From positions 37,448,001 to 37,512,000 of the forward strand of contig OX597829.1 in NCBI GenBank assembly GCA_951406725.2: a stretch of DNA of 64,000 nucleotides. Reading direction: 5' to 3'. A program made the position numbers and the translations under genes. This DNA is from Octopus vulgaris. Lineage: Eukaryota. The notes beneath the pieces were generated by a model. That model did no database searches and had not been told where the DNA came from. It saw only the letters and a program-made list of their open reading frames with translations. How positions within the stretch are numbered: the first letter of the stretch is position 1; every line of letters starts with the position of its first letter. Shown piece by piece: positions 8,644 through 57,103 of the stretch.

Positions 8644-9447
8644 CTATACTCTGTGCTGTCCATTTCTTGGGTACAAACATCAAGTCCCTTTCTTTGGTAT
8701 AAACAAGTCCATTTCTTGAGTACAAACAGCAAGTCGATTTCTTGGATATATATATATATAAAAGAGATAATGGTGTCATTGAGACCCAAAGGTGTTAGGT
8801 AATGCTGATAGTTAAGTTCCAGATTCGGTAATTTTGTGATAAGGGGTTCAACGTTGGTTCTATGTCAGCGTGTGTATATAAGAATTTTTTGTGTAATGAG
8901 ATAAAACACCAAGGCTGTGTAGATATTTGAACATTTATAGATAGAAGGTCTTACAGCTGTTTCCAGGATATTTATTAATTATATCTCTTCATCGGAGACA
9001 GTGTGAGAGGATGATTAAGCCATAGTTAGTTTAGATGTGATACAAAATAGAGAGTGAGGTGGAGGAAAGAAAATAGATGCAAGATATGCAAAAATTGAAG
9101 TTGTAGATCCATTTTTCTTTTTTATTTTATGCAGAATGGTATGTATGTAATATTCCAATACCCTATGAGTAAGTCCAAAGGTCCAACAGAGTTTAAAATG
9201 GGTCCTTCCAAATATAGTTTACATACAATGTAAGATTCCCTTATGAGTGAGATACAGCAGTTTTTAAATTTGGTCATTCCAAGTAGAGAGTTTATACTAT
9301 AATTAATAAATATCCTGGAAACAGCTGTAAGACCTATCTATAAATGCTCTAATATCTACACAGCCTTGGTTTATTATCTCATTACACAAAAAATTCAAGA
9401 AATGGACTTGTTTAAAGCCAAGAAATGGACAACACACAGAGTATAGA
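8644..9447. mobile_element. TIR element (CTATACTCTGTG...CACAGAGTATAG) with internal Penelope-like inverted tails
   Basis: 8644-8712 is the reverse complement of 9396-9447, with AAGTCCATTTCTTG sub-repeats; 8882-8983 is inverted at 9298-9396. Confidence 0.55.
8948..8999 (-). ncRNA. Penelope-type minimal hammerhead ribozyme motif (U4C core)
   Basis: GTCT-CCGATGA-A-GAGATAT..ATATCCTG-GAAA-CAGCTG-TA-AGAC: stem I GTCT/AGAC, palindromic stem III ACAGCTGT, GUA triplet. Confidence 0.55.
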
Positions 9448-9579
9448 TCATTTACTACATGTTGTTTTACACCTATTAAACAATTTTTTTTTTCATTTTT
9501 GTGACCAGGTGTTAACGTTGAGTTTTTGGATTCTGTGAGTTTGATCATGTGAATTTTCTGAGCGTCTTCACCAGTATGC

Positions 9580-10060
9580 ACTCCTCTATGCTGATGACCT
9601 TACTCTAATTGCTGCATCACTATCAGAACTTGAGGAAAAGTTTCAGGTGTGGAAGCAAGGATAAGAATCAAAGAGCCTTAGAGTCAACCTAACTAAAACC
9701 AAAGTCTTAATAAGTAGGAAGGCAGACAAACCAGAAATCCCTTCAGGTAGATGGCCCTGCTCGATCTGTAGAAAAGGCATAGGTAGAAACTGTACCCAGT
9801 GTAAGCTATGGACACATAAGAGGTGCAGTAATATCAAAGGAAGGCTAACTGGGAAGATAGTTTTTGTATGTGGCAAATGCTCAGGTGCTATAAACTCTGA
9901 AAATGTGCAGAGAACAGCTTCAGTCACATTCCAGTGAGAAAAACTACAAGTAGTAGATAGCTTCCATTACCCAGTGGTCAAAGTCAGTAGCGGGGTGGAT
10001 GCTCTGAAAGTGTAGCTGCTAGAATAAGAATAGCCTGGGCAAAGTTCAGAGAGCTACCTC
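9580..10060 (+). mobile_element. RTE-like LINE RT fragment with Cys/His-rich insertion (decayed)
   Basis: LLYADDL..ELEEKFQVWKQG*..LRVNLTKTKVL..WPCSICRKG..CTQCKLWTHKRC..FVCGKC, with stops and frameshifts. Confidence 0.8.
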
Positions 10061-10269
10061 TGCTCCCAATGCATTTTTAACTTCCTTTTTGTATGTTTCT
10101 TCCCATGTGGAATTAAATGTTAAGTAGTTGACATTAAAAAGGAATTACAGCTGTAGAAACCATATCAAAGCTGACATGGCATACAACATATGGAGTTTCT
10201 GTTCTATATTTAAGAGATGAGGAATTATTTACATTTGACAGACATTTGTCCTCATCTTGTTTGTTGTTA

Positions 10270-10312
10270 ACTCAACATTTTTGGTGATTACCCTCCAGAC
10301 TTCATCAGGTGT
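10270..10312 (-). ncRNA. Decayed minimal hammerhead motif
   Basis: ACAC-CTGATGA-A-GTCTG..ATCACC-AAAA-TG-TT-GAGT; G12 appears as A. Confidence 0.4.
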
Positions 10313-10720
10313 CTTGGGGAAATTTTGATCATGGGGTCTCATTCCTAAGCTAATTTTCATCATCTTCGTCTTCGTTGTTATTGTTGTTATTATTCAGGTC
10401 ACTGTCTGGAATCAAACTCGGAATCTTGGGGTTAGTAGCCCGTACTCTTAACCACTACACCATATGCCCATGGGCAATTATGGAGTGAATCTTAGGGCTC
10501 ATTAATCTAATATTCTCCTATCCTTCCTTAATACCAGTTGTATTATAGAGTTGCAGCTTATCAAATATGGCCATTTCCCTGAAGGCATCAACCTATTGTC
10601 TTCTTCCTTACCAAAACCTTCGCATTTGTTAGACTTTTTGATTCTTGATTTAACTTCCATGCTTGGAATTTTCTCTCTTATTTTGCTGTAGATTCAACTA
10701 TGAGAACTAAACAATCAGTC

Positions 10721-11667
10721 TGGAAGAACGACCGTGCGAAAGGAGAGGTGACGAATGAATGACTCCTTTAATACACCGCATGGTCGCTTACAATAAAAGC
10801 AAAATGGATGAATACAAGTGCCAGAAGGGAAAGAAAGACGACACAACCGTAGAATGTTAAGAGAAAGGTTTTATTTATGTGTTCACATGTATGTGTGTGC
10901 AACATAGGTACATATATAATAATAATAGGCAGGCCATCATGCATACATAATATGTATGTGTGTACAAACAAGGGTGTATGCATGTCAGATAAAATACAGG
11001 GCATAGAAAGAGTCTATAACAGGATGTTAGAAGAATGTTCTGGCACAATGAAGATAAATACCAGTTCGTAGTAAGGTATACAATAGTTGAAGTGCTGTAA
11101 GAAGAAGTTGTGGCATTGAAGCAGAGCCAGTTGAAGCAATGTCATGTAAGAAGTTGTGGCTACTATGCTGTGCCAGTTACTTAATACAGGAAGATCTCTC
11201 AGGTTGTACTTGCTGTTAACCATGGTGAAGTAATTCACAAACACTGGAGTTAAACCTGAGCGAACGTTGCTGTGTATGTAGAGATGTTGATGGAGATGGA
11301 GGTCCTGAATGCTGCTGGACGAAGTCGAAATCACCATGTGGGCTGTTGTTGGTGTTGTCTGTCGCTGGAACTGGCTGTGTGCTCTGTGGTCAGTGGTTAG
11401 GCCTTAGAAGGTCTAGAACCAAAGACAAAATACGGTTGTTGTAACTAACCTTTTATAGGGACTAGGAGGCTCCCATGGAGAATTAGAAGACTGTGTCATG
11501 GGACCTTATCAGAAGGCTGCGATTGGTTGGGTTGCACATTGGCACGTAATAGAGCAAGAGGCAAATTGCGCCAATACCAACCAATCAGAGTAGTGGACAC
11601 AACAGGGTTCAAGTGGCCAAAGGTTAGCTGTTATCTGCTATGTACGTACTTATGTATATATATAACA
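10721..11667 (-). mobile_element. Possible solo LTR
   Basis: On -, begins TGTTAT and ends TTCCA, with TATAAAA (about 11450) and ATTAAA near the 3' end. No TSD seen. Confidence 0.3.
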
Positions 11668-11739
11668 GAGAGAGAAGAGAAAGAATTTCACTAAGCGTAC
11701 ACTATAAGTCTATAGACAGCCAGACTGATGAATAGAAAA

Positions 11740-12062
11740 GGAGTGAGCCTTGATGGATTCCTACAGTCAAGCTAAATTCATCCTTGAAGACATAGTTAAT
11801 TCATTTACTGCATCTTTGTACATAGCTTATACAGCTATCACATGCCTTTCATTTACTTCTAGTTTCCTTGGCAACTACCTAATTGCTGAACATAGTGCTC
11901 TTTCAAACATCTCCAAGTTAATGAATGCCAGGAATAATGGTTTCCTCTTTGACGAGTATTTTTCCTGTAGTTACCTCATTAGGAAAATTGCATCTACAAT
12001 ACCTCTTCCAGGTATGAAGCCAAATTGCATCTTATCTAAATCTACTCTGTCACAGATCATTT
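11740..12062 (-). mobile_element. RTE-like LINE RT fragment
   Basis: DKMQFGFIPGRGIVDAIFLMR*LQEKY..KPLFLAFINL, the non-LTR RT QFGF..GR..DAIF motif. Confidence 0.75.
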
Positions 12063-12068
12063 GTAGTA

Positions 12069-13691
12069 TAGGGTGTTTGGGCTAAATTTGATGATTTTTT
12101 CGGGGACAGCTCGATGTATTTGTGAACAGTTAATGGTTTTGAAAAGCATAAAGTTGCAATTGAGAAAATGTTAGCTGACATGGCAGAGGTGGAAGCCATC
12201 TGAATATTGGAAAATAGTTACCTTTATGATGATTCGTGGTGGGTATCAAAATGTTGATATGTCAGCTGCTCAAGTCTCTGTGAAACACTGTAAAGGCTGT
12301 TAGGCAAGACAGGGACAGCAACAACAGTGGAGGCGCAATGGCCCAGTGGTTTGGGCAGCGGACTCGCGATCGGAGGATCGCGATTTCGATTCCCAAACTG
12401 GGCGTTGTGTGTGTTTACTGAGCGAAAACATCTAAAGCTCCACGAAGCTCCAGCAGGGGGGGGGGGGCGACCCCTGTTGTACTCTTTCGGTCCAACTTTC
12501 TCTCACTCTTTCTTCCTGTTTCTTGTCCCCGACTTCCTACACAACCGCTGAGCCTGGATGCACAATCATCCATACGTCGATGCTCTTGGTGTCGGGGGTT
12601 GACCTGCTTTCTCTTCTGCGGGTCTAACAAATAGCAAAAAGGATCATGTTTCCGACTTCTCCCACTAATGGGACAAAGGCCGCTTTGCTCAACAAACTAA
12701 CAAACAAACAGCAACAACAGGGATTACAAAGCCATGACCAACACAAAGGGACACTGGGTATTCTGATTGTGTCGTTCACATGCTGGAATTCATTCAATGA
12801 CTGCAGGATAAGGTGTTGGAAGATCTGAACAAGGGAATCTGACCTTTGGTGAGAGAGACAGGTGTTGGAGTCACCACCATGAAGCTAGCCTTAAATAAGT
12901 ATCTTCACTACCACTTGTACAAGAGGTGCAAGGGACAAATTCTGAGAGTCAAAGCAAAGGAGAACCTCTTGAAGAAGGCAAAGAAAATCCTGAACAAGCA
13001 CTCTGTTGAAACAGGGATGATCTGGTTCTTCTCAGATGAAAAGAACTTCTGCTTGGACCAGTTGCACAACATGTAGAACAAAAGGTGTTTGTGTACAATT
13101 CATGTAATGTCCCACATATGAAAACCAAGTTCACCCAAATTGTGATGATCTTTCAATGTTTCTCCAACAGGACCTTAGACTCAATTCAGACAGTTATGTG
13201 AAGCTTCTAGAGACTGTGATCAAATTTAGGCTGGAGAGGGTTACTGCAGGAAGATCATATGTGTGACAGCAGGACTTAGCTCCTTGCTTCACATCCAGAA
13301 AGAGAGTCAAAATTGGTTGTTGCAGAACTTCTACATTGCCAGCAGTTCCAATTTCTGGCTGCCTAATTTCCGTGATTGTAATCCCACAGATTACTTTGTG
13401 TTGGGTGCAGTTGAGAAAGACACTAACTGCTCTTCCTGCAATATCAAGGCCAAGATCAAGATGTTCAAAGATCTTCCAAAGAACACAGTGAGAAATACAG
13501 TCTTGAGGCATCTTGGGGCCATGGTGGATGCTGAGAGCAGCTACTTTGGATAAACTGTTTTTTTCCCCAGATTTAATCTAGTTAATATTTTTAATATTTT
13601 TTTTATCTCTTTAATAATTTTATTTTTGAGTGGAATATTGTAGATTTTTTTTGCTTTTATGCCAACTGTCAAATTGAGCCCACTAACTCTA
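12069..13691 (+). mobile_element. Tc1/mariner DD37D (maT-type) transposon, decayed, interrupted by a SINE
   Basis: Degenerate TIRs (AGGGTGTTTGGGCTAAATTTGA / TCAAATTGAGCCCACTAACTCT). Motifs WFFSDEKNF, QQDLAP and WLPNFRDCNPTDY; 37 aa between the last two Asp after repairing one 2-nt frameshift. Confidence 0.75.
12328..12707 (+). mobile_element. tRNA-derived SINE (GGAGGCGCAATGGCCCAGTGG head)
   Basis: A box TGGCCCAGTGG, B box TTCGATTCC, (AAAC)n tail; TSD ACAGCAACAACAG at 12315-12327 and 12708-12720. Confidence 0.88.
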
Positions 13692-13736
13692 TGAATATAA
13701 TATACATATATGATACATTTATATATATATATATAT

Positions 13737-14225
13737 ATCATCATCATCATTGTTTAACGTCCGTTCTCCATGCTAGCATGGGTTGGACGGTTCGACCGGG
13801 GATCTGGGAAGCCAGAAGGCTGCACCAGGCTCCAGTCTTATCTGGCAATGTTTCTACAGCTGGATGCCCTTCCTAACGCCAACCACTCCGTGAGTGTAGT
13901 GGGTGCTTTTTACGTGCCACCTGCACAGGTGCCAGGCGAGGCTGGCAACAGCCACGGTCGGATTGGTGTATTTTATGTGCCACCGGCACGGAAGCCAGTC
14001 GAGGCGGCGCTGGCATCGGCCACGAGTCGGATAGTGCTTTTTACGTACCACCAGACCAGGGATCCTGGCTGGTTCAATTCGATTTCGCTTACTCCAACAT
14101 GTCTTCGCAAGCAACGTGCCTGTCGTACGGTCGGATTGGTGTATTTTACATGCCACCGGCACGGAAGCCAGTGGAGGCAGCGCTGGCATCGGCCACGAGT
14201 CGGATAGTGCTTTTTACGTACCACC
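13737..14225 (-). mobile_element. (GAT)n-tailed RTE-like 3' UTR copy with internal duplication
   Basis: Family core; 13954-14053 repeated at 14128-14225. Confidence 0.8.
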
Positions 14226-14403
14226 ATATATATATATATATACACACACACAGGTGGGAACATAAGTGCAAAGCAAAGTGGAAAAGACAGTACTCAAATA
14301 CCAAAGGTAGAGTAATATGCTTTTATTAAAGCAGCAAAATTATCATAGATCTGTTACTCAGTGATAACAGTTTTGTGATAATTTTGCAGTTTTAATAGAA
14401 GCA

Positions 14404-14516
14404 TGTATGTATGTATGTATGTATGTATGTATGTATGTGTGTGTATGTGTGCATGTATGTATGTATGTATGTATGTGTGTGTATGTATGTATGTATGTAT
14501 GTATGTACATACATAT
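14404..14516. repeat. (TATG)n microsatellite
   Basis: Read directly. Confidence 0.95.
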
Positions 14517-15158
14517 ACACGTGGTAACTGTGATAGATTTTAATATTGTTTAAATTACAAATATTTAAGTAAAATTTATTAAGAATAAAGACAAATAATG
14601 TTTTGAAAAACAATATATTTCTGCTTAATAAAATAAAAGGGTTCCTTTATATGCCAAGTTAAGCATGAAGGGTTTTTTGGGAAAGAGAAAAACTTCAATA
14701 AATGTTCTGGCAGTTAAGTACTATGTAAATATCCTAATATTCAAATATCTATTGTCTTTGTATTTGTTTTGTAAAATTCCTGATGTAAAATCCTGTGTTG
14801 GAACAGATATTGTTATGAGCAGAATTAGATAAGTTGAAATATGTTTGTCACATATTTCGACAGCTAAAAGGCAAACAAACTGCAATTACCATGGAGAATA
14901 AATCTCTTTTATGGTAAAAAAAAAGGTGTTAAAAACACCCGGTTTGTTCAGTGTCGCCATCTATTAGTAATCCCAGACATCGACACTTCAAGCTACTTGG
15001 TTCTCGTCAATGAAAGGCAATTCTGAATGAAGTTGTAAAGCTTTAGATGTAATTCAGTCAGCATGTTGACTGATTTGCACTAGTAGATCACCGGACTGAG
15101 GTAAATAACTTCCCTAATTCTGCTCATACTTACACACTGCTTAGCACTGACACTTCAT

Positions 15159-16380
15159 TAGATATTATTATATTTCAAGATGGACATTTTTTTTTTGTCA
15201 AATAAACACACACTATATATTCATTCTTCACTTCAGATTTATTTTATTTTATGTCCTTTGGCTGGAAATCTTTCGTCACACCTCCTGTGACCTCTTCAGT
15301 GTCTCTCCATCCAATGTGTCTCCTCCTGTTCTGTCTACTCCATTTTGTCTTCCTAGAAAAGCCAAATGGACTAAACAGGACAGGAGGAGGTGTATGCGAT
15401 GGAGAGGTACTGAAGCAGTCACATGTGAGAAGAAAACATGTGCGATGGAGAATCGCTGAAGAGGTCACTGGATGGAGAGCCACTTGGAAAGGCCAAATGG
15501 ACTAAACAGGACAGGAGGAAACATGTGAGATGGATAGTTGCTGAAGATGTCACAGGACAATGGGAGACACATGAAATAGAGAGTCACTGAAGAGATCACA
15601 GGAAAAGAGGAGACATGTTGAATGAAGTCTCTGAAGAGGTCATATGACAGGAGGGAACATGAAGGATGGAGAGTCAGACTAAATGGGACAGAAGACATGT
15701 GGGAGCAAAAGTTGCTGAAGGGGTCACAGGACCAGAGGAGACATGTGGTATGGAGAGTTGCTTAGAAAGACAAAGTGGAGTAAACAGGACAGGGAGAGCC
15801 ATGGGGGATGGAGAGTCGTTGAAAAAGTCACAAGGCAATAAAAGACACGTGGGATGGAAAGTTACTTAGACCAAATGGACTAAACAGGACAGGAGGGGAC
15901 ACATGGGATGGAAAGTCACTGAAGAGATTACAGGACAGGCAGAGACATATGTGAAGGTGAGTCGCTTAGAAAGACAAAATGGACTGAACATGACAGGAGG
16001 GGATACATGGAATGGTGAGTTGCTGAAGTGGTCACAGGACAGGAGGTGGCACATGAAATGGAGAGTCACTGTAGAGGTCACAGGACAGGAGGTAACATGG
16101 GGGATGGAGAGTCACTTAGAAAGACAAAATAGACTAAACAGGAGAGGAGGAGACACATGGAATGGAGAATCACTGAAGAGGTCACAGGAAAAGAGGAGAC
16201 ACATGGAATGGAGAGTCATTGAAGAGGTTATAGGTTGAGTGATGAAAGGTTTCCAGACAAAAAAATTTTAAATAAGAACAATAATAAAATAAACCTGAAA
16301 TGAAGCAAAATACATAGTATGTGTGTGTTTATTTGGCCAAAAGAAAAATGACTATCCTAAAATATAACAACAAATATCTA
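15159..16380. mobile_element. Foldback-like TIR element with internal minisatellite
   Basis: About 120-140-bp AT-rich inverted arms enclosing many GGACAGGAGGAGACACATGGRATGGAGAGTCACTGAAGAGGTCACA-like units. Confidence 0.65.
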
Positions 16381-16559
16381 TCCTAATTTGCAAAAATTAA
16401 AGTTAGGAAAAACAAACTATTTACAACTTTGCTAGCAAAAAAAAAATGTATAAAAAAAAACTAATTGTTCACCACAGTTCTATTCTCAAATGCTGTTGTC
16501 CAAAGAATCTAAATGCTCTCTCTAAATATATTTGATTATCAAATAGCAGGTGTGCACAG

Positions 16560-16565
16560 TTATTA
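16560..16565 (-). terminator. Candidate CFAP73 polyadenylation signal
   Basis: AATAAA on - about 200 nt past the stop codon. Confidence 0.35.
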
Positions 16566-16768
16566 CAACTTACAAAGAATTAGCTTAATTACAGCAAAAA
16601 TAAAATAAAAAGGTAGTTTATAGTTTTTACAAGAGTCTAAATTGTTCTATGAAATCTTTAAATTTGTGTTCAGTTATCAAATATCTAATGCACACCAGAA
16701 ATAGTTATACAACTTACAAATTATAGGATTCTTCATAGTAAGTTAAGAAAAAAGTCCATTTGCAGTTT

Positions 16769-22225: not shown

Positions 22226-22242
22226 AGTATACTTAAACACAC

Positions 22243-26423: not shown

Positions 26424-26464
26424 CTGAAAAAAAACCCACAAAAAAACAATATCACCATATCATT

Positions 26465-26544
26465 GACATATGTTTCGATTGATGCATTAAAATTAATCCA
26501 AGAGGAAGAATAATGTGGAATAATGTATCAATCTCATCAGGGAG
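26465..26544 (-). ncRNA. Hammerhead motif with intact core, truncated at the cleavage site
   Basis: CTCC-CTGATGA-GATTGATACATTA..TAATGCATCAATC-GAAA-CATATG-TC: stem II pairs at 12 of 13 positions, stem III is palindromic, triplet GUC. The 3' strand of stem I is absent. Confidence 0.65.
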
Positions 26545-26695
26545 AATATTATAAACAACAGTGGTCATTAATAAGCCATTTTTACAGATGTAAGAAAATA
26601 TTATATATATGTGCGTGTGTGTATATATATATATATATAACACAATAATTTCCCTTTATATAACAGTATTTTTTCATAGCGTTTTTCAGATGGCC

Positions 26696-26758
26696 AGATA
26701 ACCGAAGAGATGGTGTTGTGGATTTCCACTTCGGCATCTGAAACTCAGAGTTTTATCT
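26696..26758 (+). ncRNA. Minimal hammerhead motif (U4C core)
   Basis: AGATAA-CCGAAGA-GATG..GTGGA/TCCAC..CATCT-GAAA-CTCAGAG-TT-TTATCT; 6-bp stem I. Confidence 0.55.
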
Positions 26759-26858
26759 TGACTATTGAGTAAATGTAACATATTATTTTATAGATAAATT
26801 TCCTCTATTTACATAATATTGAGGTCTCTTTCTTTCTTTTGTTATCTTACCGCTTTTG

Positions 26859-26861
<3 letters not shown>

Positions 26862-26919
<58 letters not shown>

Positions 26920-41289: not shown

Positions 41290-41331
<42 letters not shown>

Positions 41332-41389
41332 AAAATTGAATAAGGAGACAAACACTCGGGATGTTATTATACCATTTATATCTCGAAGT

Positions 41390-41474
41390 CTTCTACATAT
41401 GTTTCAACAGACACACTCCAAAAATGTCCAACAGGATAAATTATTGTCAGCAATGCCTCAATCTCATCAGGAAG
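41390..41474 (-). ncRNA. Minimal hammerhead motif with intact core
   Basis: CTTC-CTGATGA-GATTGAGGCA..TGTCTGTT-GAAA-CATATG-TA-GAAG: stem I CTTC/GAAG and palindromic stem III; stem II is degenerate. Confidence 0.6.
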
Positions 41475-42042
41475 GATATAAATAACGAACTCATCAAACA
41501 GACATGTTAACAGAAATAGGAAGTCCTATAAAATGTAATGTATTTATATTCATATGCATGCACACTTGCATACACACACTCAAATATGTGATGTGCAAAT
41601 ACAAACAATATAAATATATATTATATTCATACAAAGTGTTCATTTCCTTATTCAATATTTCCTTTTTTTTCTACTAAATATGACTTAATATCCTAGAATT
41701 AAATTCTGGAACACTTAAGCAACATTTAGCTACCTTGTAATTATTCCCCTGGATTTTTCCTATAAATTGTAAACTATATATATAAGATAGCAGAGTATAA
41801 TTTGAGAAAGATTTGGCTATTATTTCTAGCAGTTTGTTGTAATTTAGTGGTGGTGGTGGTGGGGGGGGTACTGGTGTTGGAGGAATTACTAAAAATTTTC
41901 TATATACTTTTTGTGAATAAAATTTCATTACATGCATGGTGATGGCATTCATTGTAATGGTTGAGTGGTGGTGCTGGTGTTGGTGATGGTGGTGTTGGTG
42001 TTGGTGGTGTTGGTGTTGGTGGTTGTATTGTTGTTGTTGTTG

Positions 42043-42406: not shown

Positions 42407-42571
42407 CTGGTGTTGGTGGTGTTGGTGTTGGTTGTGTTGGTGTTGGTGGTGTTGGTGGTGGTGGTGTTGGTGGTTTTGATGTTGTTGTTGGTGGTGGTGA
42501 TGGTGGAATTACACCTACTCAAAAACTCAACTTGTTGTTACTGAATGCTTACAGAAAACATGGTGCATTAC

Positions 42572-42676
42572 CTTCAAAAATTTATCAAACTTCTCGAGTG
42601 ATTCTTTCAGCTGAAGTTCTTTTCTTTCCAGCTCCCCACGTCTCTGTTGAAGACGTTCCATTTTGGTCTGAAACTC
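42572..42676 (-). CDS. CFAP73: CFAP73/CCDC42-family exon 3
   Basis: ctttcag|...|gtaatg, phase 0/0. Encodes EFQTKMERLQQRRGELERKELQLKESLEKFDKFLK (DUF4200-type coiled coil). Confidence 0.95.
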
Positions 42677-42845
42677 CTGAAAGTTATAAATTACATTAAC
42701 TGTTATTATATCTTAAACTGTCTGTGTGATTAACAAGAAATTTGATTTGTAGACTATCTGATTTCAGTATTGACATAGCAATGAGGTGCAAACTGCAGTT
42801 AATGACATAGTAAGGAGGTTGGGATGAAACCAGAAGATTTTATAT

Positions 42846-43141: not shown

Positions 43142-44530
43142 ACTAGAAGATTTTATATAGATATTTACATGTAGAACTGTAAACCTAATCTGCTAGGAAG
43201 CAGGACTGGAATGAGGTTTTATATAGAAATCAACATATAAAACTGTAAACCTGATCCACTATGTATATGATGTAACAATAAAGTTTAGCCCTTTTTGTTC
43301 CCATATTATTCAGGTTCATTTATCTGGATTTGAAACTACTAGTAATTGCTTGTCTTCTTTGACAGCAACATATTTATGTAGATTCACCTCTATACTACCA
43401 GTATGTAAGTGTGTTCTGTATCTTAGATTCATTATATTATCGTTCAGGAGGACATAGGATGAAGTGCTGAAGGCTGATCGCAAAATTCTGAGCCTTGCAA
43501 AGGAGATGACAGAGGACCAAGACAAACACACTATTGAAATCTTAAAGCTACAAGATAATGTTTGATTAATTCAAAGCAATGTGAACAAATAAACATTACA
43601 TTTGACAAAGAAATCTGAATACGAAAGAGTTAAGGTATATTTTTGTTGTTTCAGAATGTCTCTTAGTTAATCTGGGCATATTTGTTGTAGTTCTGGATTG
43701 ATCACTATTGTGCATATTCATCTTGTGATGTAGTATGGAATATTTCATTTGATGAGTAACAGGTGACTTGAGTAGAAATTTAAATATTGGTGTGTCTCTA
43801 TCTTTTTGTAGAATATGTCCATTGTAATTTAGGTATCATATAATTCTAGGAAGGTATCTAAGATTCGTAGTTCTTTTCCACCAGTTTCTAATGTAAGTCT
43901 AAAGGATGGGATTATGTTACTTAATATGTGATGGAATGTAGGAAAATCACCTTTTGACTTATTCCAAAAAATCACCAAACAATTGTTTCCACTTCTCAAC
44001 CAAATATTTAAAATCATGGTCGAATTTTGGTTTTGTTTCTTGGTATAGTTCTCTTCTGGGTATCCCATTACTAGGCCTGCATAAGGAGGTACTGCTCTTA
44101 TCTCCATGTCTGTTCCTTTAATTTGTTTTTATTTTTTGCCACCAAAGTTAAAGGCGTTTTCCTCTAATGCTAATTGTAGAGCTTTGATGATGAAGATTTT
44201 TGAAGCATTCATTAATTGTATTTCTACACTTTTTGTTATGTTTTAATACGGAATTATTAACTTGGATTACATTACTCGAATGCAAACAAATAATGGAGTT
44301 AACACATGAGCAAATACAATGCAATATATACTAAAAAATGCACACTGATTAAAAAAAAGCAGAACCTAAAGATCCTTGTGCAAAAAGTATCATGCCACTT
44401 ATGAAACAAACCAGTATACAAATTAGAAGGCAGTCAAAAGTTCACTTTAAAAGGACATGAGGTGAATGCACAAAATAAAACAGAATCATTAAACTTAGTT
44501 CGATACTTAGTCAGAACATAGAGTTTAATT

Positions 44531-45008
44531 CATCATTATCATCATCATCATCATCGTTTAACGTCCGCTTTCCATGCTAGCATGGATTGGACGATTTTGA
44601 CTGAGGGCTGGCGAACCAGATGGCTGCACCAGGCTCCAATCTTGATCTGGCAGAGTTTCTACAGCTGGATGCCCTTCATAACGCCAACCACTCTGAGAGT
44701 GTAGTGGGTGCTTTTTACATGCCACCAGCACAGGGGCCAGTAAGGTGATGCTGGTAATGATCATGCTCGAATGGTGCCTTTTACGTGCCACCGACATGGA
44801 AACCAGTTAGCTGCTCTGGTAACGATCATGCTCAGGTGGTGCTCTTGGCACCCAACTAGCACGGGCACAAGTGCCAGTAAGGCAATGCTGGTAACAATCA
44901 TACTCGAATGGTGCCTATTATGTGCCACTGGCACGGAAGCTGGTTATCCGCTCTGTCAATGATCACACTAGTATGGTGCTCTTTGCACCCCGCTAGTATG
45001 GATGCCAA
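44531..45008 (-). mobile_element. (GAT)n-tailed RTE-like 3' UTR copy
   Basis: Family core and VNTR. Confidence 0.8.
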
Positions 45009-45103
45009 GAGCAATATAACATCTTTCTACCAAGTATTCCACTGCAATTATGCCTAACATGTGGTACTTTGGCATAGAGATGAATGGTATTGAATCTTGT
45101 TCA

Positions 45104-45326
45104 AAGGCGGAGAGCTGGCAGAATCGTTAGCACACTGGACGAAATGCCTAGCGGTATTTCGTCTGGCGCTACGTTCTGAGTTCAAATTTCGCCGAGATCG
45201 ACTTTGCCTTTCATCCTTTCGGGGTCGATAAATTAAGTACCAGTTACGCACTGGGGTCGATATAATCGACTTAATCTGTTTGTCTGTCCTCTCTGTGTTT
45301 AGCCCCTTGTGGGTAGTAAAGAAATA
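45104..45326 (+). mobile_element. GGCGGCGAGCTG-family SINE (tail B)
   Basis: 16-bp TSD GGTATTGAATCTTGTT at 45086-45101 and 45327-45342. Confidence 0.9.
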
Positions 45327-47663
45327 GGTATTGAATCTTGTTAAAATGGTGCACTTTGATTAAAGTGTATGTTGTTTGGGATCTTTGACCATAGTGGTTT
45401 AAGTAGTGAATTTATCAAGTGACTTACTTTGTAGTGTTGGTTATTGCGGTCTTACTTTGAGATCAGCTGATCCGTTTTTTCAATGCATTGGTTCTTTTGT
45501 TTGTTTAAAGCCTCCTGTTGTTTCAATTTGTAAATATTGTTTTCTTTACTTTTGAAATTATAAAGAAAGTCAATCTCTTTTCCCATTAAGCAGCTTGAGA
45601 ATATGTTGGTTAATGAGTTGACTTTGTTTGTAGTTGTTTTATCTAAGTTTCTTGTCTCTTCCTTGTAGTAGTTAATATCCATTTATTGATAATTACATTG
45701 CCCTTATCAGCTTCTTTTGCAACAAATGAATATCATTTTCCAATGTTAATAGAGTTTCTTTGTCTCCTTTCCAAAGTTTCTGTTTACAATTTATCATCAT
45801 CAACGTTTAACGTCCGTTTTCCATGCTGGCATGGGTTGGACAGTTCGACCAGGGTCTGGGAAGCTAGAAGGCTACACCAGGCTCCAGTCTGATCTGGCAG
45901 AGTTTCTACAGCTGGATGCCCTTCCTAACGCCAACCACTCCGTGAGTGTAGTGGGTGCTTTTTACGTGCTAGGTGAGGCTAGCAATGACCACGATCGGTT
46001 GGTGTTTTTTACGTGCCACCGGCACAGAAGCCAGTCAAGGCGGTGCTGGCATCGGCCACGTTTGGACGGTGCTTTTTATGTGCCACATACACGACAGGCT
46101 TCTTTCAGTTTCCATCTACCAAATCCAGATACAAATAGAGAATTTCGATATCGTAATATAAGTAACCAAATGTTCAAAGGAATTATTGTTTTTGTTGTTG
46201 TTGGTGAAAACTTCTCTTAGCTAAAGTTTCCAATGTCTGCTTTATGGTGTAGGAGTGAATGGAAGTCCCTTTTAATTTTTGACAAATTCCTTTTAAAGAA
46301 ATTTTTATATTCTGGGGTCAATATTTTCCATGAGTTAAGGGAGCAAACTTGGAAGAATTGTTAGCACACTGGGTAAAATGCTAAGCGGTAGTTTGTCTAT
46401 CTTCAGATCCTGAGTTCAAATTCTACTGAGGTTGACTTTGTCTTTCATCCTTTCAGGGTCAATAAAACAAGTACCAGTTGAGTAATGGGGTCGATGTAAT
46501 CAACTTACCCCATCTCATGAAATTTTTGGCCTTGTGCCAAAATTTGAAATCAATATTTTCCATGGGTTTGTTTGAATCATTGGGTCTGATATCTAATTGA
46601 AGTAAGCCTTCCCTAAAAAAAAGAGTTCACAGAATTATATTCTTTTGTTCTGAAGCTGGTACTTCTGTTTCCTGTTTGCAGCTTTCTTCCAAGTTCTCTA
46701 TTAGTACTTATTTCCTAATTTGCCCACATCTCGATCACGTCTACACATACATTATTCCATTCATGATTCTTCTTAATTTTGGTTTTAGCTTTTTGTCTAT
46801 ATTTTGTGTATTCATTTGAATGTATAAGATATAAGTTTCCAGTCTGAGTTTGAGGTGTTCTCCACATATATTCTTGGGTGTTTGAGAGATTAGTTTCATT
46901 GTCTAGTTCTTATGTAATATATTTATATGTTATTTTAAAATTTCATCCTCAGTTTTCATATTCTCTCTATATTTTAATTGTGCTTTGGTTTTCATTATGG
47001 AACATTCTTCAAATCATCCACTCACTACTAAACCCATGCAAAAACCTCAACTAGCCGAAGACTATTTGATAGGGTGCTGAAAAGTTCCTGACTTTGGGTA
47101 AAAGAAAATACAGGAGGATCAGTTAATTATGATTTTATTGAACGTATTCCCCTCACAAATTCACACACTTATTGCAGTGGTTCTTCAGTTTTTCTAAACT
47201 CTGTAAAGAACTTGGAAGGTTGGACCTCCAACCAGGCCTTTCACAATAACCTTAAAGCCAGGAATTTACATATAAATATAGTTCTGGGTTCTGGGTTCAG
47301 TCCCACTGCTTGGTACTTTGACAATTGTCTGCTACTCTGGCACTGGGCCCATCAAACTTTGTGAGTAGATTTGGTCGACAGAAACTGAGAGAAGACATCT
47401 GTATATATGTAGTGTCTATGTGTGTATGCCTTTGTGTGTATGTTTGTCCCACACCACTGCCTAATGACCTGTGTTGATTTCTTCAACTAAAACCTTTCAA
47501 GGCAGTTACTTAGCATGGCTGCAGTTCAATGATTGAGACAAATAAAAGATAAAAGATACATATTAACATGTGGATATATTAAGAGATGCTCCATGCATTT
47601 ACTTCATGAAGTGACTTTGAAAATATACTAAGTTCAATATATATATACATATATACACATTAC

Positions 47664-47769: not shown

Positions 47770-47920
47770 CTATGAAAAGGACAAAACAAAAAACACAAAT
47801 ATAAACAACAGTTTATCAGTAAGAAATTTTTTTTAATTGAATTTTCTTTTTTTAATATATATATATATAAAACCTATTCAACAGTTTTTTTTTTCCTTTC
47901 TCATTACATTCTACCATTAA

Positions 47921-48999: not shown

Positions 49000-49472
49000 T
49001 CATCATCATCATCATCATCATCGTTTAATGTCCGCTTTCCATGCTAGCATGGGTTGGACGATTTGACTGAGGGCTGGCGAACCAGATGGCTGCAACAGGC
49101 TCCAATCTTGATCTGGCAGAGTTTCTACAGCTGGATGCCCTTCCTAACGCCAAACACCCCGAGAGTGTAGTAGGAGCTTTTATGTGCCACCAGCATGAGG
49201 GCCAGTTAGGCAGTACTGGCAACAGCCATGCTCAAATGGTGTTTTTCAAGTGCTACCTGCACAGGAGCCAGTCCAGCAGCACTGGCAACAACCTCACTCG
49301 AATGTTTTTTTCACGTGCCACTAGCACAAGTGCCAGTAAGGTGACGTTGGTAATGATCACGCTCAAATGGTACCTTTTACGTGCCACCAGTACAGAAGCC
49401 GGTTAGCAGCTTTGGCAACAATCACGCTCTGATGGTGCTCTTTGCGCTCCACTAGCACAGATGCCAGTCATC
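49000..49472 (-). mobile_element. (GAT)n-tailed RTE-like 3' UTR copy
   Basis: Family core and VNTR. Confidence 0.8.
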
Positions 49473-51541
49473 GTCTACAATAAAAATGAGTGCTAGGTGA
49501 AAGACTTTCTATGGATGAAGACTGAGAAAGATGTGAAAAGAAGAAGTAAAGTACACTTAGATCTTGTGATGTTAGGCAGCATGGATGAGATAATACTATA
49601 TGGGTTGAGATGGGTGACAACATATCTGAATGGCAGATCTTTCTAACCCATTCTAACATAAAATTTAGGATACTGAAAACAATATTCACAATCTAGTTTC
49701 AAATAAACCCTTGCATACATATTTTGAAATTAACTGTTGTTACTGAAATATCAGAACAAATAAACAGTTCATACCTGCTTTTTTTTCCTTTTTCTTTTTA
49801 ATGTAAAGACAGTTTGAAATACTGTCAGAGCAAGCATTCATTTGTTGAAATTACGTCTCTGTTTCTGCCTCTCTGTCACCCTCTAACCTTTTCATCCTCT
49901 GACATTAGTTCCCTCTCCTCAAATGCCCCTGCACCTCTCATAATTCATTGTCTTGTGAGCTACTTGATGACCCTGCCAGTGCTGATGCCACGTAAAAAGC
50001 ATCCACTCCACACTGTAAAGTGGTTGGCATTTAGAAGGGCATCCAGCTGTAAAAACCATGCCAAAACTAACCTCACCTGTACTAGTGCCATGTAATAAGC
50101 ACTGAGTCTACTCTGCAGAGTGATTGGTGTTAGGAAGGGCATCCAGTTTTAAAAACCTTGCCAAGACAGACAGAGTAGCATAGGGTAGTTTTTCTACCTG
50201 GCCGGCTCCTGTGAACCTTCCTACTCATACATGCAGGGAAGATGGACATTAAATGATGATGACGATGATGATGATGATGCCAAAGCAAACATAGAATCTA
50301 GTGCAGACATTTGGCTCATGTTTTTGTGAAAATGTCCAAGCCATGGAAAAGGAGATGTTAAATGCTGCTGCTGCTGACGACGACAACGACGGTATCTACA
50401 ATGTCAATTACAAAACTTTACATTGAATTCAATTATTGACCACATTGGTCAATATCAGTTAATCTATGTACAGTGAATCTAAGTTGTAAAAGTCTCATAA
50501 TTGTTTTCATTTGTATGTTTTGTTTTCTAGAGTTTTTCAACTTTATGTTCTAATTTCAAAATTCACAAGGATCGGCTTTGCTTTTCATTCTTTCCGGAAT
50601 TGATAAAATAATCATCAACCAAAATTACCTTGTACCTAAACCACCATTATTGTCATCTGTCACACTAATTCCACTCTTTCACACTTACCTACCCACCCAC
50701 CTTTTCCATTCTTCTATTCCTGCTCTTTCCCTCACATTCAGTTTGTACCTTGACTTCACATTTCTCTCTCTTTCCAGATGGGGAAACTATGTATTCATAT
50801 CTTCAGCAAAGCACTTGCTCTTGTCCTTCCATATTTTCATATTCCTCAATACTATATACTCTATTCATTTGAGGGATCCAATGCTGGTGCCATGGAAAAA
50901 AATATTCTGGCATTAGGAAGGGCATCCAACTACAGATACTGGAGCTCAGAGCAGCTCTCTGACTTGTTGATTCATGTCAAATCATCCAACCCATGCTAGC
51001 ATTGAGTTGAATGATTTCAATCCATGCCAGCGTGATGATCATGACGACCACACTGCCTAAAGAAAAATCTCTCACTATTGATTAGCTAACATTCACTCAC
51101 CAATATGCAACAATTACCAGCTTAGAGATAAAGTGTATCTCCTACCATTACTATAACAGCTTTGGCTTCTTTGAACGAGTAAGCTGCCTCTCCATTTCTG
51201 TCATCTTCCGTACGATTTGTCACATCAAAATTTTATCTTAAAAACACTTATCCCCAATTCTTCTTGTCCACATTTTCCATGTAGATACCAACCAACGGAA
51301 AAATTTGAATAGAACTTGAATTGTTTCAGTTTCACCAGTTGAGAAAGACTCGCAGAGAAACGTGAGAGGAGAATGCATTTTCTTATCCTCCCAACTAACA
51401 AAACAAGAGTATACAGATGACTGATCGATATTGCCTCTTGATACCAGGAATTCAGAATGAAATGTTACTGGTTTTGCCCTTTTACTTGAGAGGGAGGGAA
51501 GAAAAAGTTACGTTACAGTTTAGGCTGTAGATAAGTAATTA

Positions 51542-52505
51542 CCGTAAATCTTTGAGTATAATCCGCATTTTTTTCCCAAAATTTAAAGGTCAAAATCCCT
51601 AGTGCATACTATGTATGAGGTTAAAAATGAAAAATATTTTCTAAGCAATGTCCGAGTCTCTATTTGCTGTCCGGCAATGTTTATTCAGACGCATTTTGTG
51701 AGGTTGGGTCCGAAAATACCTTAAGCTAAACCTGAAAGCAATGAAGTCATAAAAGAATCATCCATAACTTGTAGTAAGCAACATTTATTAAAATAAAAGT
51801 ATTCAGAACACAGAATATCATGTAACAAAAACAATTTGCAAACATATTACATTCCCATATAACAGTTAAGAACATCACCATTATTGTATTACACATGCGC
51901 GGAAGTGTTTGTTCGACTTGGTGCTGCAGGTTTAATTATGCACAACTCAAGTTAGAGAAGGGTGTGTATTATACACAAGGTTTAGGTTTTTCAGAGGTAC
52001 AGCCCCCTAAAAATCCCCTGCGTATTGTATTCAAGGACAGATCAATGAAGGTTGGAAGTCTTCGACAATGACTGCCTCCGGTGCATTCTTTGCTGCTGTC
52101 AGGTGGATTGAGTTCCCACCGCCAATCTCTGCCTTTGCGGCCCCTTCCATCTGTCCTTCTGCAATGGCGCTTGCGGTGGTTTGGCCATGCATGTAGGCGT
52201 CCGGTGGGTGAACTGAGCCGTGATGTCCTTCTCCCAACTCCACTTCCCAACTGGCCGATACGCGCGGGCGGGCAGCTGAAGACCTGGGTTATGACGATCA
52301 AGGAGGACCTCTCCGTGCTCACGGGACTGCAAGTGGTCGGCCTGCGCCGATGGAACCGTGACTGGCGCAGGACCGTCATGCATGGGCTGCCATGGTTCGA
52401 GATGCCTCGAGGGTGGTAGAAGAAGCCGACTCAACCCGTCCAGAGTGAATGTCGCCACAAGTACAAGTAAGTACTCAAGGGCGGACTATACTCGAAGATT
52501 TATGG
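51542..52505. mobile_element. pogo/Tigger-like MITE carrying a nested LINE fragment
   Basis: TA|CCGTAAATCTTTGAGTATAATCCGC...GCGGACTATACTCGAAGATTTATGG|TA. Confidence 0.8.
52037..52470 (+). mobile_element. GC-rich 5'-truncated RTE-clade LINE (second family)
   Basis: WRLRWFGHACRR..WPIRAGGQLKTWVMTIKEDL..GLRRWNRDW, CAAGTA-repeat tail, TSD GTA(T/C)TCAAGG. Confidence 0.82.
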
Positions 52506-53125
52506 TAATACTGATCATCATCGGTTTTCTTTCATTTGGGATTTTATTCTATGAAATATATATATATATATATTTTTTATTCCCAAGCACACATTCTTGG
52601 TAATCTGTGTGCTCGCGCGCGTTTTTTTCCTTTCATATGAGGATTCGGGTTTGTTTTCCCATACGTCTCTCTCGCCGACTGAGGAAGTGGGTCGAGTAAG
52701 GAAATAATTCATACTGGAAAATTCTCAGACGACCAAGAGTTAAGTAAAGGTTAGCAAGTACCTATTAAAAACACCTGGGGATTTGGTAGAGCCAGTTTTG
52801 CGAAGACAAATCTTAGAAAAAGATCCAAAGATAAAGATAATAAGAAATCGTAATGTTTTATTGACGTGGATAGAAACCGTACAAAATAGTTTGGTGACTG
52901 CTGCCACACAGTCGAAGGCCTCGTTCCGCAGGCATTTTCCGTGAAGAGTAATTATTTCTAAGATATTTTAAGTGACAATAAGTGGCATGATGTGGCGGAT
53001 GTTGAAATTGTTCAGGCCGGGAACCGAAAGACGCCGATTTCTTTGATCAATATATTTTACTTTCATCGTCACAATTTACACAATCAATAAATTTATCGAC
53101 ACCCCAAGGAATAAACCACAATAAC

Positions 53126-53178
<53 letters not shown>

Positions 53179-53307
53179 AAGCAAACCGTTGACAAGTGCA
53201 GAACTAAAACCAACACGAGTGATTGACAGAAATACAAGTTTGTAAACAAAAGGAAAACGAAGAATAAAGCTTATCGAAAATTTTCGTAAAGCAACATATG
53301 CACTTAC

Positions 53308-53360
53308 AAGAGAAGTTTATTCTCAAAGGTGGTTTTAAAATATTCTTCTAGGCTCATCAT
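53308..53360 (-). CDS. CFAP73: CFAP73/CCDC42-family exon 1 (coding part)
   Basis: Encodes MMSLEEYFKTTFENKLL then tt|gtaagt, phase 2; matches the family N-terminus LE(D/E)YFRTTFEDKLL. Confidence 0.93.
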
Positions 53361-53419
53361 TTTTGCGATTTTTTTATCCGACGTGTTTAGCAGGAATGCA
53401 ATCAAATTATTGTTTAGAG

Positions 53420-53432
53420 GTTTCTTAGCAAC
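53420..53432 (-). promoter_or_regulatory. RFX X-box
   Basis: GTTGCTAAGAAAC 60-72 nt upstream of the ATG of a ciliary gene; CACGTG lies at 53436-53441. Confidence 0.6.
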
Positions 53433-54010
53433 GATCACGTGCGCTGCTCAGAAACTAATAAACGTTTGTTTATTTTCCCCCCTCAGCTCCATCTCTTGTT
53501 GTCCTATCTATTCACAATCATTTAGAAACATTCAAATATTACATTAACCATCGAAATTTATTTCAAGGAAACCTTTAGCGGCTAATGAAAAATATAAGGC
53601 GCTTGTACACTTTCATACCTCGGCCCATTTTTAAATATCAAGGTTTTGGACTATTTTTCTACCTCTAGCCAAGCAAGAGTTCGACAAAACTATTATTAGA
53701 ATTTTATATTCATTATTAGATTTATTATACACAAACATCGCAATTTTATAGATTAGACTAAGGACAAATGTGAGATAATTTGGCATGGATCCTATAATTT
53801 TTAAAATTATCAAAATATTAATAAATGGTATAACCAAAAGAGAGTTCAGTAAAAGTAGTAATTTTTTATTTCGACTTCAAAGGCTTATTACATGCGTTAT
53901 AAAATGACTGACAGTAACTTTTAACGTCGGTTCCCAAGCAGGTGCGAATTTCACTAAATATCGTTTTTGGAGATTGGAATACTTTTGAAAAGTACTATAG
54001 ATGAAATAAT

Positions 54011-54403
54011 CTTTTCTACTCTAGGCACAAGGCCCGAAATTTTGGGGGACGGGGGCCAGTCGATAAGATCGACCCCAGAACACAACTGGTACTTAATTTA
54101 TAGACTCCGGAAGGACGAAAGTCAAAGTCGACCTCGGCTTAATTTGAACTGAGAACGTAGCGGCAGACGAAATACCTATTTCTTTACTACCCACAAGGGG
54201 CTAAACACAGAGGGGACAAACAAGGACAGACGGATTAAGTCGATTACATCGACCCCAGGGCGTAACTGGACTTAATTTATCAACCCCAAAAGGATGAAAG
54301 GCAAAGTTGACCTCGGCAGAATTTGAACTCAGAACGTAACAGCAGATGAAATACGGCTACACATTTCGCCCGGAGTACTAACGTTTCTGCCAGCTCGCCG
54401 CTT
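54011..54403 (-). mobile_element. Dimeric SINE (full tail-B copy plus 5'-truncated tail-A copy) under one TSD
   Basis: TATAGATGAAATAAT at 53996-54010 and 54404-54418. Confidence 0.85.
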
Positions 54404-54649
54404 TATAGATGAAATAATGCAAAAGCATATTGCCAGTGTGCACACACACTGACATTTACAGTTCTTTGCTTAAGAAAACAATTACACAAGAGCTGTTGAT
54501 GAAGTTAGCTACAAGTGCTCTGTTAGTCAGGATTCCAGGATAACATAGAGAAGAGTTACGGAGGTGTACATGCATAGCAAGTGACCTGATCTGAGATCGT
54601 GTGCTGGAACGAAAACAATTGCGGCATGGAAGGTGTTTATAAGCCATTT

Positions 54650-54876
54650 AAGAAACACACAAAATCCGTTAGATTCACTTCAACATTTAAATTTAATTTG
54701 CTAAAATATTTTTTGTCGCTTAGAGACCGCGACCTGTTCACTGACAAAATTCCATGCTGCATCTCTGTGCACGGAATTTTGTCAGTGATCAGGTCGCGGT
54801 CTCTAAGCGACAAAAAATATTTTGACAAATTAAATTTAAATGTTGAAGTGAATCAAACGGATTTTGCGTGTTTCTT
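54650..54876. repeat. About 105-bp-arm palindrome; each arm carries a variant hammerhead-like motif
   Basis: AAGAAACAC..TGACAAAATTCC / GGAATTTTGTCA..GTGTTTCTT; a degenerate relative lies at 8245-8390. Confidence 0.85.
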
Positions 54877-55231
54877 GGATCTTTTTACTTTGACCGGCAG
54901 ATTTTTAAAATAATTTCTATGTAATTAAGTACTTTTAAACTTCGTATACTGGTAGTGTGTTACATAAAACATCTTTTTTTCTTGGCTTTCTTGAGAAAAT
55001 TCTGTAGTTTGTAAGCAGATATTGAATTCATCTCAATAGACGTCATTGATTGGTTGAAATTGCCGAAATGCAAGAAATTAAACAACAAATAGCTTACAAA
55101 CTACAGAATTTTCTCAAGAAAGCCAAGAGAAAAAGATGTTTTATGTAACACACTACCAGAATACGAAGTTTAAAAGTGTTTAGTTACATAGAAATTATTT
55201 TTAAAATCTGCCAGTCAAAGTGAAAAGATCC
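54877..55231. mobile_element. Long-TIR MITE with GG termini and 8-bp TSD (Merlin-like)
   Basis: About 140-bp arms starting GGATCTTTT(T/C)ACTTTGAC; TSD TGTTTCTT at 54869-54876 and 55232-55239. Confidence 0.75.
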
Positions 55232-56025
55232 TGTTTCTTATATAGAGAAGAGTTTTCTCAAATTATTTACATCAAAAACGAGAGAGAGAGAGAGAGAGTA
55301 TTATGATAAAATGAAACAGAAAAGAAGAAATGTACTTCGTTTACTGTCTTACATTGGTACCTATTTTGATTTGCATATATTCGCTGATATTCTCCTGTCG
55401 TTTCCGAGTCAAGCGAACCACCTTTAACCCTTTAGTGTTCAGGTTATTCAATCAAACATAATGCCTATTGATTCCCATTGATTTGAATTATGAAGAAAGG
55501 AAATCAACTCATAAATTATTGCCTCACCCACCGTTCCTTTTTGTTTTACTTCTGAATTTGACATGTTCCTAAGATGGCAAAACAGCCAATAAATTCATCA
55601 AAGAACAGTCAGATTTGTAACAATTTTTGGTCTGTTGTATTTGTGATGCTCAAGTTCTGGGATCTTCTCAGTGGTTATCCAATGCAGGTCATTCCAATAA
55701 ACTGAAGTTCCACAAAACCAAAAAAAAAAAAAAGCTCAAAGTTTCTGGGTCAATCCCACTGTTTGACTCCTTGGACAAATGTCTTGCACTTATAGCTCCA
55801 GGTCAGCCTATAGTACAAATAAATGTCCTGTACTGTAGCCCCAGATCAACCAGAAATTAAACTAAGCCTTATTAATGCATTTTGGAGGATGGAAACCGAA
55901 AGCCAGTTGTGTATGTGTGTGTGTCTCGTCTGTTCTTCCTGCCACTGCTTGACAACCAGTGTTGGTTTGTTTATGTCCGGTAACTTAGTGATCTGGTAAC
56001 AGAAATTAAAAAAAAAAAAAAAAAA

Positions 56026-56250
56026 TTTGAGCGAGGTCGTTGCCAGTACCGCCTGACTGGCCCCTGCGCCGGTGGCATGTAAAAGCACCCAATACACTCT
56101 CAGAGTGGTTGGCGTGAGGAAGGGCATCCAGCTGCAGAAACTCTGCCAAATCAAGACTGGAGCCTTGTGCAGCCATCTGGTTTGCCAGCCCTCAGTCAAA
56201 ATCGTCCAACCCATGCTAGCATGGAAAGCGGACGTGAAATGATGATGATG
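56026..56250 (+). mobile_element. (GAT)n-tailed RTE-like 3' UTR copy
   Basis: Family core. Confidence 0.8.
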
Positions 56251-57070
56251 AGAAAATAAATACTAAGATTAATTTGTTTGACAAAAACAAACTTTCAAGG
56301 CAGTGCCCTAAGAATGGCTGCTGTGTATTGACTAAAATAAGTTAAAGAAGACCAAAAAAACGGAAAATGAAATGACATTCCAATACAATTGAGTCCAAAA
56401 TTAACTGGTGCACAAAAAACTATAACTTCTTTGTATCCATGCTTTAAGAATCACAGATTATGGATCTACAAAAACAAAAAAGAAAAGAAAAGGCTTTATT
56501 TGGATGGTAGCCTTTTCCCCATAACTTTTCAGATCTGACTTCCTTCTGAAAGTTATCGGATCAATATTTTTAACACATGAAATTATGGTTCCTCAAAATT
56601 ATGCATAATATAAATCCTAAAAATTTTTCTAAAATGTCAAAATAAAAATTATGGAAAATGTGTGGGGCTTCTTTCTAACTCCAATTCTTTATATTTTAGA
56701 TTTGCAATTTACAATGCTTAAAACATACAAATCGAAAGAATTATGCTTTTTGGTACACTAGATAAATCTCTGATTGTATTCTATAGGAATGTCAAACAAA
56801 ACCTGAAGATTTTCTATTAAATTAATCAAAATAATGCACTACTGGATGAATGACACCTCTGACCTTATCCTTTCCCCTCACCCTCTATATCACTTCATTC
56901 TTCTACTTACTTCCTCCTACCTTTCTCTTATAAGAGAGCTTCAAGTGTGAAGCTCTTATGATCTTGTGTTTCTTACCAGTAGCACCCAGTATTTTTTTGT
57001 ATTTTTTTTTTTTTAATACTTAGGGTGTAAAACTTTGCTGTCTTTCATTAATTCTTTTCCTTTCAATTTT

Positions 57071-57103
57071 TCCCTGAAGAAGGAATCTGTCCAAAATGTT
57101 AGA
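57071..57103 (+). ncRNA. Decayed ultra-short hammerhead motif
   Basis: TCC-CTGAAGA-A-GGA.atctg.TCC-AAAA-TG-TT-AGA; G12 appears as A. Confidence 0.35.

Follow-up and report, generated by a model that had tools for sequence, protein, structure and literature searches.

A 64,000-nt stretch of the Octopus vulgaris genome (assembly GCA_951406725.2, 2.80 Gb in 227 contigs; C16:37448001-37512000), referred to here as the window, carries a scattered set of hammerhead ribozyme motifs. We conclude that these motifs are very probably 3'-terminal fragments of the pseudo-long terminal repeats (pLTRs) of at least seven families of Penelope-like elements (PLEs), that each family has a hammerhead of the minimal type I, for which dimeric cleavage by way of its palindromic stem III is predicted, and that most of the scattered copies are likely dead fossils. 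In full-length elements, the motif is found in both pLTRs, around an open reading frame (ORF) for a reverse transcriptase (RT) and a GIY-YIG endonuclease (EN). All of the motifs that an initial annotation had named as hammerheads of several families are present where it placed them.

Since single copies were often too decayed for a strict scan, each site was assessed through a family alignment of 15-30 top loci rather than as a single copy. Only the best 40 candidates were scored per search of the octopus's own genome, and the candidate totals given below are not copy numbers. Each of the seven named sites belongs to a repeat family (the genome candidates number 138-3110 for families A, B, C, D, F, G and H), and the alignments of top loci restore the core, stems and palindrome of a minimal type I hammerhead as the family majority. 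The core reads N3-Y4-G5-A6-N7-N8-A9 / G12-A13-A14-A15.1 / U16.1-H17 with a Watson-Crick 3-8 pair, though among the old copies aligned for family F only about half have G12.

Near-intact motifs in the window number only three. The family A hammerhead at 8948-8999(-) has the core CCGATGA (C3-G8, U4C), a 1x1 mismatch above the core, the palindrome CAGCTG, a stem I of 4 bp, one stem II mismatch and a GUA site; its repeat spans about 8740-9290 (3110 candidates, 30-copy alignment). Family C at 26696-26758(+), with U4C, an odd palindrome and a GUU site, matches its family majority over the whole motif (1399 candidates, the best 40 at 98-100%). It lies in a solo pLTR at 26636-26867(+) that is flanked by (TA)n tracts and derives from a young Hydra-clade PLE; this pLTR is 97% identical over 232 nt to that of the full-length locus L112. 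The third, family H at 63844-63902(-), is intact and has a U3-A8 core (U3 in 20 of 20 aligned rows, A8 in 19 of 20), an 8-nt palindrome and a GUC site, in a repeat that runs from 63710 to past the window end (1246 candidates).

The remaining sites are damaged to various degrees. Family B at 26465-26544(-) (repeat about 26440-26600; 335 candidates) combines a long loop II with an intact core, a 12-bp stem II and the palindrome CATATG, and its window copy has lost stem I. Family D at 41390-41474(-) (repeat about 41320-41610, plus an inverted piece, about 41630-41780; 253 candidates) keeps its core and lacks part of stem II. B and D are related (71% identity), so the seven sites first noted represent six lineages and family H adds a seventh. 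The window copies of B and D, both damaged, have an identical stem III palindrome on a common strand, 15 kb apart, and judging from their sequences the two families could in principle make mixed dimers. Families E (10270-10312(-), the 3' end of a Penelope/Poseidon-type PLE) and F (57071-57103(+), repeat about 57000-57124; 138 candidates) are decayed as first described: G12 is lost and GAAA reads AAAA. The same change affects both arms of the inverted pair at 54650-54876 (108-nt arms, 94% complementary), which had been listed as a variant in two arms. This pair belongs to a head-to-head arrangement of 5'-truncated family G pLTRs (54587-54876; 2430 candidates), with one G3-C8 hammerhead per arm at about 54697-54748(-) and 54778-54829(+). 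Three features had been overlooked: the family H copy, a second family A copy at 9298-9390(+), which is inverted, 5'-truncated and without its CCGATGA half, and an older, heavily decayed inverted pair at 8240-8450 (arms 8242-8307(-) and 8317-8450(+)), again with AAAA for GAAA and akin to the G3-C8 family, blastn giving 73-75% against the 54.7-kb motif. Most window copies are thus decayed, likely dead and predicted not to cleave, and the window therefore reads less as a working ribozyme set than as a fossil record of elements that bore ribozymes; of the diverse ribozyme repeats proposed initially, the diversity stands.

The 83 Rfam matches to the window up to E=10 include no hammerhead family. 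Our first strict scan found 2 matches against 0.07-0.22 in 60 local shuffles; decayed single copies escaped the first two descriptors, which were too strict for them. We used a genome sample of 80 stretches of 10 kb (800 kb) from contigs C1-C25, taken at fixed round-number positions. With pairing at 3-8 unconstrained, a scored descriptor gave 44 matches, 39 of which have a Watson-Crick pair there (30 C-G, 7 U-A and 2 G-C), and 5 in reversed plus complemented sequence. The 39 matches compare with a mean of 1.36 and a maximum of 3 in 25 local order-3 shuffles and correspond to about 31 independent sites, one tandem array supplying 7; the density is well above that of shuffled sequence. Across 1.92 Mb scanned, targeted and partly overlapping loci included, 213 matches fall into 31 clusters (26 C-G, 4 U-A and 1 G-C). 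The pair C15.2-G16.2, which marks the classic GUH site and was not demanded by the scan, occurs in 25 of these 31 clusters and in 8 of 170 shuffled matches, and the stem III palindrome, which was demanded, is purely Watson-Crick in 26 of 31.

Mapping a motif library to the same sample yielded 88 copies, decayed ones included, at about 71 sites, and none in the reversed control. The resulting density of about one per 9-11 kb is a rough figure because the library was partly built from this sample; at 88 copies in 800 kb, or about one per 9 kb, the initial estimate of one per 8-10 kb holds. Scaled to the genome, this makes roughly 250,000-300,000 copies. Proximity to (TA)n, said to be usual for these motifs, was borne out in part: a (TA)5+ tract lies within 210 nt at 5 of 9 sites (random positions within 300 nt, 18%), and the other 4 are more than 1.3 kb away from one. 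A candidate at 3744(+) was dropped, having no relative in the sample.

Five of the six lineages at the named sites are linked to PLE RT/GIY-YIG genes, in families C and G directly within the pLTRs. A pair of family C copies spaced 2.94 kb from each other pointed to L112, in which 235-nt direct repeats containing the motif flank a frameshifted RT and GIY-YIG gene; the element is about 3 kb long, with an inverted truncated repeat on its 5' side and (TA)n at its 3' end. It carries RWK, DKT, CxCX5C, as well as a GIY-YIG at the C-terminal end, the criteria of the Hydra clade (Craig et al. 2021, PMC8557442; statements on this and the other papers cited refer to the portions of them covered here). 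Assembled contigs of four RNA runs cover L112; ends, strand and level are not readable from them, and they are not used as evidence. Hydra-type PLE protein matches accompany family B at 5 of 20 loci, with the GIY-YIG part at 4, and a Hydra-type RT match accompanies family D at 1 of 20. An RT and GIY-YIG remnant runs into the family E motif in L167, and the peptide upstream of family F in L269 resembles what we take to be a GIY-YIG C-terminus. The initial suggestion of PLE- or retrozyme-like repeats is thereby supported for PLEs; for retrozymes it is not, as no head-to-tail array of 150-450-bp hammerhead units was found at any window site. Tandem intact Neptune-type PLE units of 4.27 kb with one motif each occur in L247 (C1:27.84-27.85 Mb) and likewise in L243-L245. 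In these loci an upstream 454-aa ORF1 overlaps a 775-aa RT-EN ORF, and the hammerhead has U4C and a U-U mismatch above the core.

Family E, represented by 8 copies in the sample, has an additional feature. In its window region (about 10200-10540) the EN stop and a tRNA-like segment precede the motif. The segment, with A- and B-box-like sequences, lies at 10360-10470(-) between the EN stop and the hammerhead in the 3' untranslated region and is also seen in L004, L136, L167, L208 and L296; ARAGORN called no tRNA gene in the window. Two of about 12 family E copies begin at this tRNA-like head and some copies consist of the head only, hinting, from their layout, at a tRNA-headed, hammerhead-tailed short interspersed element (SINE) moved by a PLE.

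The parent of family G was absent from the first 21 family G loci, none of which has the ORF. Sample locus L127 has an endonuclease end 1 kb upstream of a family G motif, and the best 40 copies returned by a query with this end have 94-100% identity. Locus L302 consists of a pLTR, a 777-aa ORF and a second pLTR, with the family G motif, and the window arms are 86-89% identical to its pLTR. Its protein matches that of L242, which has Pfam RVT_1 and GIY-YIG domains, at 22% identity (BLASTP E=1e-12), and its EN and linker are visible. The Nematis and Neptune clades are defined by a C-terminal EN with CX2-5CxxC linker and by phylogeny; L302 may be a candidate for either, provisionally labelled Nematis. 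The G3-C8 core is present in 41 of 42 family G arms and in 22 of 22 motifs, 21 of them identical, at 15 young parent-type loci selected for closeness to L127. A natural G3-C8 pair was not found in the literature searched, which held engineered or unrelated cases only (Lunse 2017, outside our coverage, may report it), and the core, seated in a recently active autonomous element, appears undescribed in nature. G12 reads A in 12 of 42 arms, a CpG-type change, as G12 is preceded by C. Within 90 nt, the arms of one pair share 1.43 changes, compared with 0.42 for arms of different pairs, and 4 of 21 pairs, the window pair included, have G12A in both arms; such sharing could arise if the template copied was already dead, or else by conversion between the arms. 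Folding of the window locus predicts a single long hairpin for each strand (-160 and -166 kcal/mol), in which the hammerhead motif would be buried. A reading of 54650-54876 as a miniature inverted-repeat transposable element was rejected, the arms being unequal pLTR pieces of an RT element. A further inverted repeat, 54877-55231, is inserted into the right arm of this pair.

Among the 20 stem pairs compared over 9 rows of the B/D clade, 10 vary at both positions, and the covariation score is 0.357 vs 0.169; none of 500 shuffles scores as high, and slid controls reach at most 0.128. Two-copy cofolds pair the palindromes as an intermolecular stem III in families A, C and H, and form the whole dimer hammerhead in H.

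We propose the following course of events. Going by known PLE biology, copying would begin at the 3' end and usually halt early or switch strand, so that pLTRs would be left alone or as inverted pairs set head to head, (TA)n being a frequent location. The ribozyme would be under selection only in active parents, which would explain the stem covariation and the compensated 3-8 pair (C-G, U-A or G-C) between families. The solo copies are seen to decay afterwards, and the CpG C11.1-G12 is frequently the place affected. Two motifs in tandem parents may pair by their palindromes and are predicted to self-cleave after N17 as a dimer, possibly with the element's protein.

Several results weigh against this account. 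No parent ORF was found for family A in 55 loci or for family H in 20, and Pfam does not recognise the L302 and L112 proteins. The B/D test leans towards structure because 4 of its 9 rows came from a structure scan. Stem covariation, seen in B/D, is weak in the C clade (9 rows, 92% paired): 4 of 20 pairs change and 40 of 500 shuffles score as high. The minimum-energy two-copy fold of family G is not the dimer hammerhead, the gain being only about 2 kcal/mol. In the portions covered of PMC11167929, an Anolis PLE ribozyme is dispensable for insertion in vitro and no RNA ends were seen at its site.

The missing parents leave room for another origin, in which families A, H and possibly E would lack an ORF themselves and depend on borrowed PLE proteins, as non-autonomous elements of a retrozyme- or SINE-like kind. 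The sequence common upstream of A (340-640 nt) and of H (about 570 nt) indeed contains no ORF, two family H copies stand in tandem 555 nt apart, the tRNA-headed copies of family E have the makings of a SINE, and true tandem retrozymes exist in this genome (L117 and L255). We nevertheless consider this origin unlikely. The window copies are not in tandem arrays; the layout of A and H is inverted and 5'-truncated, as in the ORF-linked families; most ORF-linked copies also miss their ORF, as the first 21 family G loci did before a parent was found; and family E runs into the RT-EN remnant of L167.

A different question is whether the motif still cuts at all. The fold could be retained as an RNA handle for the PLE protein, for binding, template positioning or template switching, with cutting minor or lost. 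Tolerance of weak variants (U4C, G3-C8, U17 and mismatches above the core) would follow naturally from such a role, as would the low in vitro activity of minimal hammerheads (PMC4209133) and the catalytic mutants that still insert (PMC11167929), and the family G pairs dead at G12 in both arms, with their excess of shared changes, are compatible with a ribozyme-dead template. Conversion between arms could also give those shared changes, however, and across the 31 clusters the catalytic residues G5, A6, G12, A13 and A14 (demanded by the scan) persist together with the compensated 3-8 pair and the GUH preference, which was not demanded. Loss of cutting in favour of a handle accordingly seems improbable to us, and a predicted dimer cleavage in active PLEs is preferred. 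Chance matching in AT-rich repetitive DNA does occur with loose patterns (170 matches in 30 shuffles with the 3-8 pair free; the looser match at 52679(+), a single candidate, was rejected since a single-copy match is taken as chance), but for the named sites it is already refuted, and deserves practically no credence, given the enrichment in the sample, the empty reversed control and the position of the motifs in pLTRs.

The motifs belong to a known hammerhead class, as fossil and a few intact PLE ends that are unusually dense and diverse, with cleavage predicted from sequence. PMC4209133 describes minimal hammerheads, weakly active in vitro, with single and opposite-strand copies, U3-A8 and an extra base after A9, with the molluscan cases Lottia and Crassostrea in its supplement and no cephalopod case among the portions covered. 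The window motifs are alike in their type I order, short or palindromic stem III, extra base after A9, pLTR location, thousands of dispersed single or opposite-strand copies, U3-A8 pairs and U17 sites. They differ in density, with about one per 9-11 kb here compared with 2,000-9,000 per genome reported, and in having G3-C8 as a natural core, a 1x1 mismatch that is often present above the core, and a long loop II. Craig et al. (2021) describe PLEs with inverted truncated copies, tails and (TA)n targets, and L112 agrees with their Hydra clade of C-terminal EN+ PLEs in its RWK, DKT, CxCX5C and GIY-YIG motifs, length of about 3 kb, (TA)n and pLTR hammerhead; unlike the clade as described, it stands for a young, cephalopod-like family whose hammerhead has U4C and a palindrome with an odd centre, and is frameshifted. 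Non-LTR retrozymes with a type I hammerhead have been proposed to originate from PLE pLTRs (PMC7229834; bioRxiv 10.64898/2026.07.22.740005), and typical ones occur in this genome as tandem 359-360-bp repeats with a canonical type I hammerhead at L117:2300-4560 (C1:20.002-20.005 Mb) and L255:5350-6390, in two opposed arrays. At the window sites, in contrast, PLE ends stand singly or inverted, and tandem 150-450-bp arrays with canonical motifs are absent.

Engineered C3G/G8C hammerheads have the identical swapped pair and are partly active in vitro (PMC11167929, PMC8495972, PMC3884650), including a protein-assisted PLE hammerhead in which the swap gives partial rescue (PMC11167929); here, G3-C8 is natural and fixed in an element with many copies at 95-100% identity. 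The portions covered of PMC3088659 list U3-A8 as the natural 3-8 covariation and do not mention G3-C8. For octopus, PMC13282606 reports 31 recently active PLE families, its main text without 'ribozyme' or 'hammerhead', and the literature searched held no catalogue of octopus or cephalopod hammerheads.

We regard it as a serious possibility, short of a probable one, that the genome holds some 250,000-300,000 hammerhead-derived PLE ends, more than 100,000 of them still fitting a strict fold, in dozens of families, and that one of these is an autonomous PLE, mobile at present, with a ribozyme that functions with a natural G3-C8 core and a UUU site. In that case the families would amount to a set of mutants supplied by nature, with which one could ask whether cleavage is obligatory for PLE hammerheads and whether weak cores are rescued by the protein of the element. 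Young intact parents with C3-G8, U3-A8 and G3-C8 cores offer natural variants on which cleavage, dependence on a dimer and help from the protein could be examined. Because of the G3-C8 core, standard descriptors and Rfam models overlook entire families that are abundant. The scattered copies should be mostly inert to the host; inverted pairs, if transcribed, would form long RNA hairpins.

The PLE RT remnant that had been noted near the 41.4-kb motif is present at 43625-45788(-). It is broken, of Neptune/Poseidon type and interrupted by other repeats; relatives with intact ORFs exist (tblastn 43% to the intact 775-aa ORF of L242, E=1e-32). Its closeness to that motif is not evidence of linkage, and it was rejected as parent of family D: it belongs to another clade and is a separate insertion, because a likely host exon intervenes and family D links to Hydra-type genes. 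As far as tested, it is the parent of no window motif. The likely coding exon lies between AG and GT at 42571-42678(-) and encodes a coiled-coil peptide that presumably resembles CCDC42/CFAP73. It suggests a minus-strand host gene, and families A, B, D, E and H could therefore be in sense orientation in introns.

A rough pattern for reversed-order cores gave one unconvincing match. Further long inverted repeats at 57586-58106, 3872-5018 and 63477-63647, like that at 54877-55231, show no hammerhead motif. Outside the window, a long ORF in L115/L116 (C27:23.770-23.773 Mb) is built of 84-bp units in tandem and is likely to be a gene for a C2H2 zinc-finger array.

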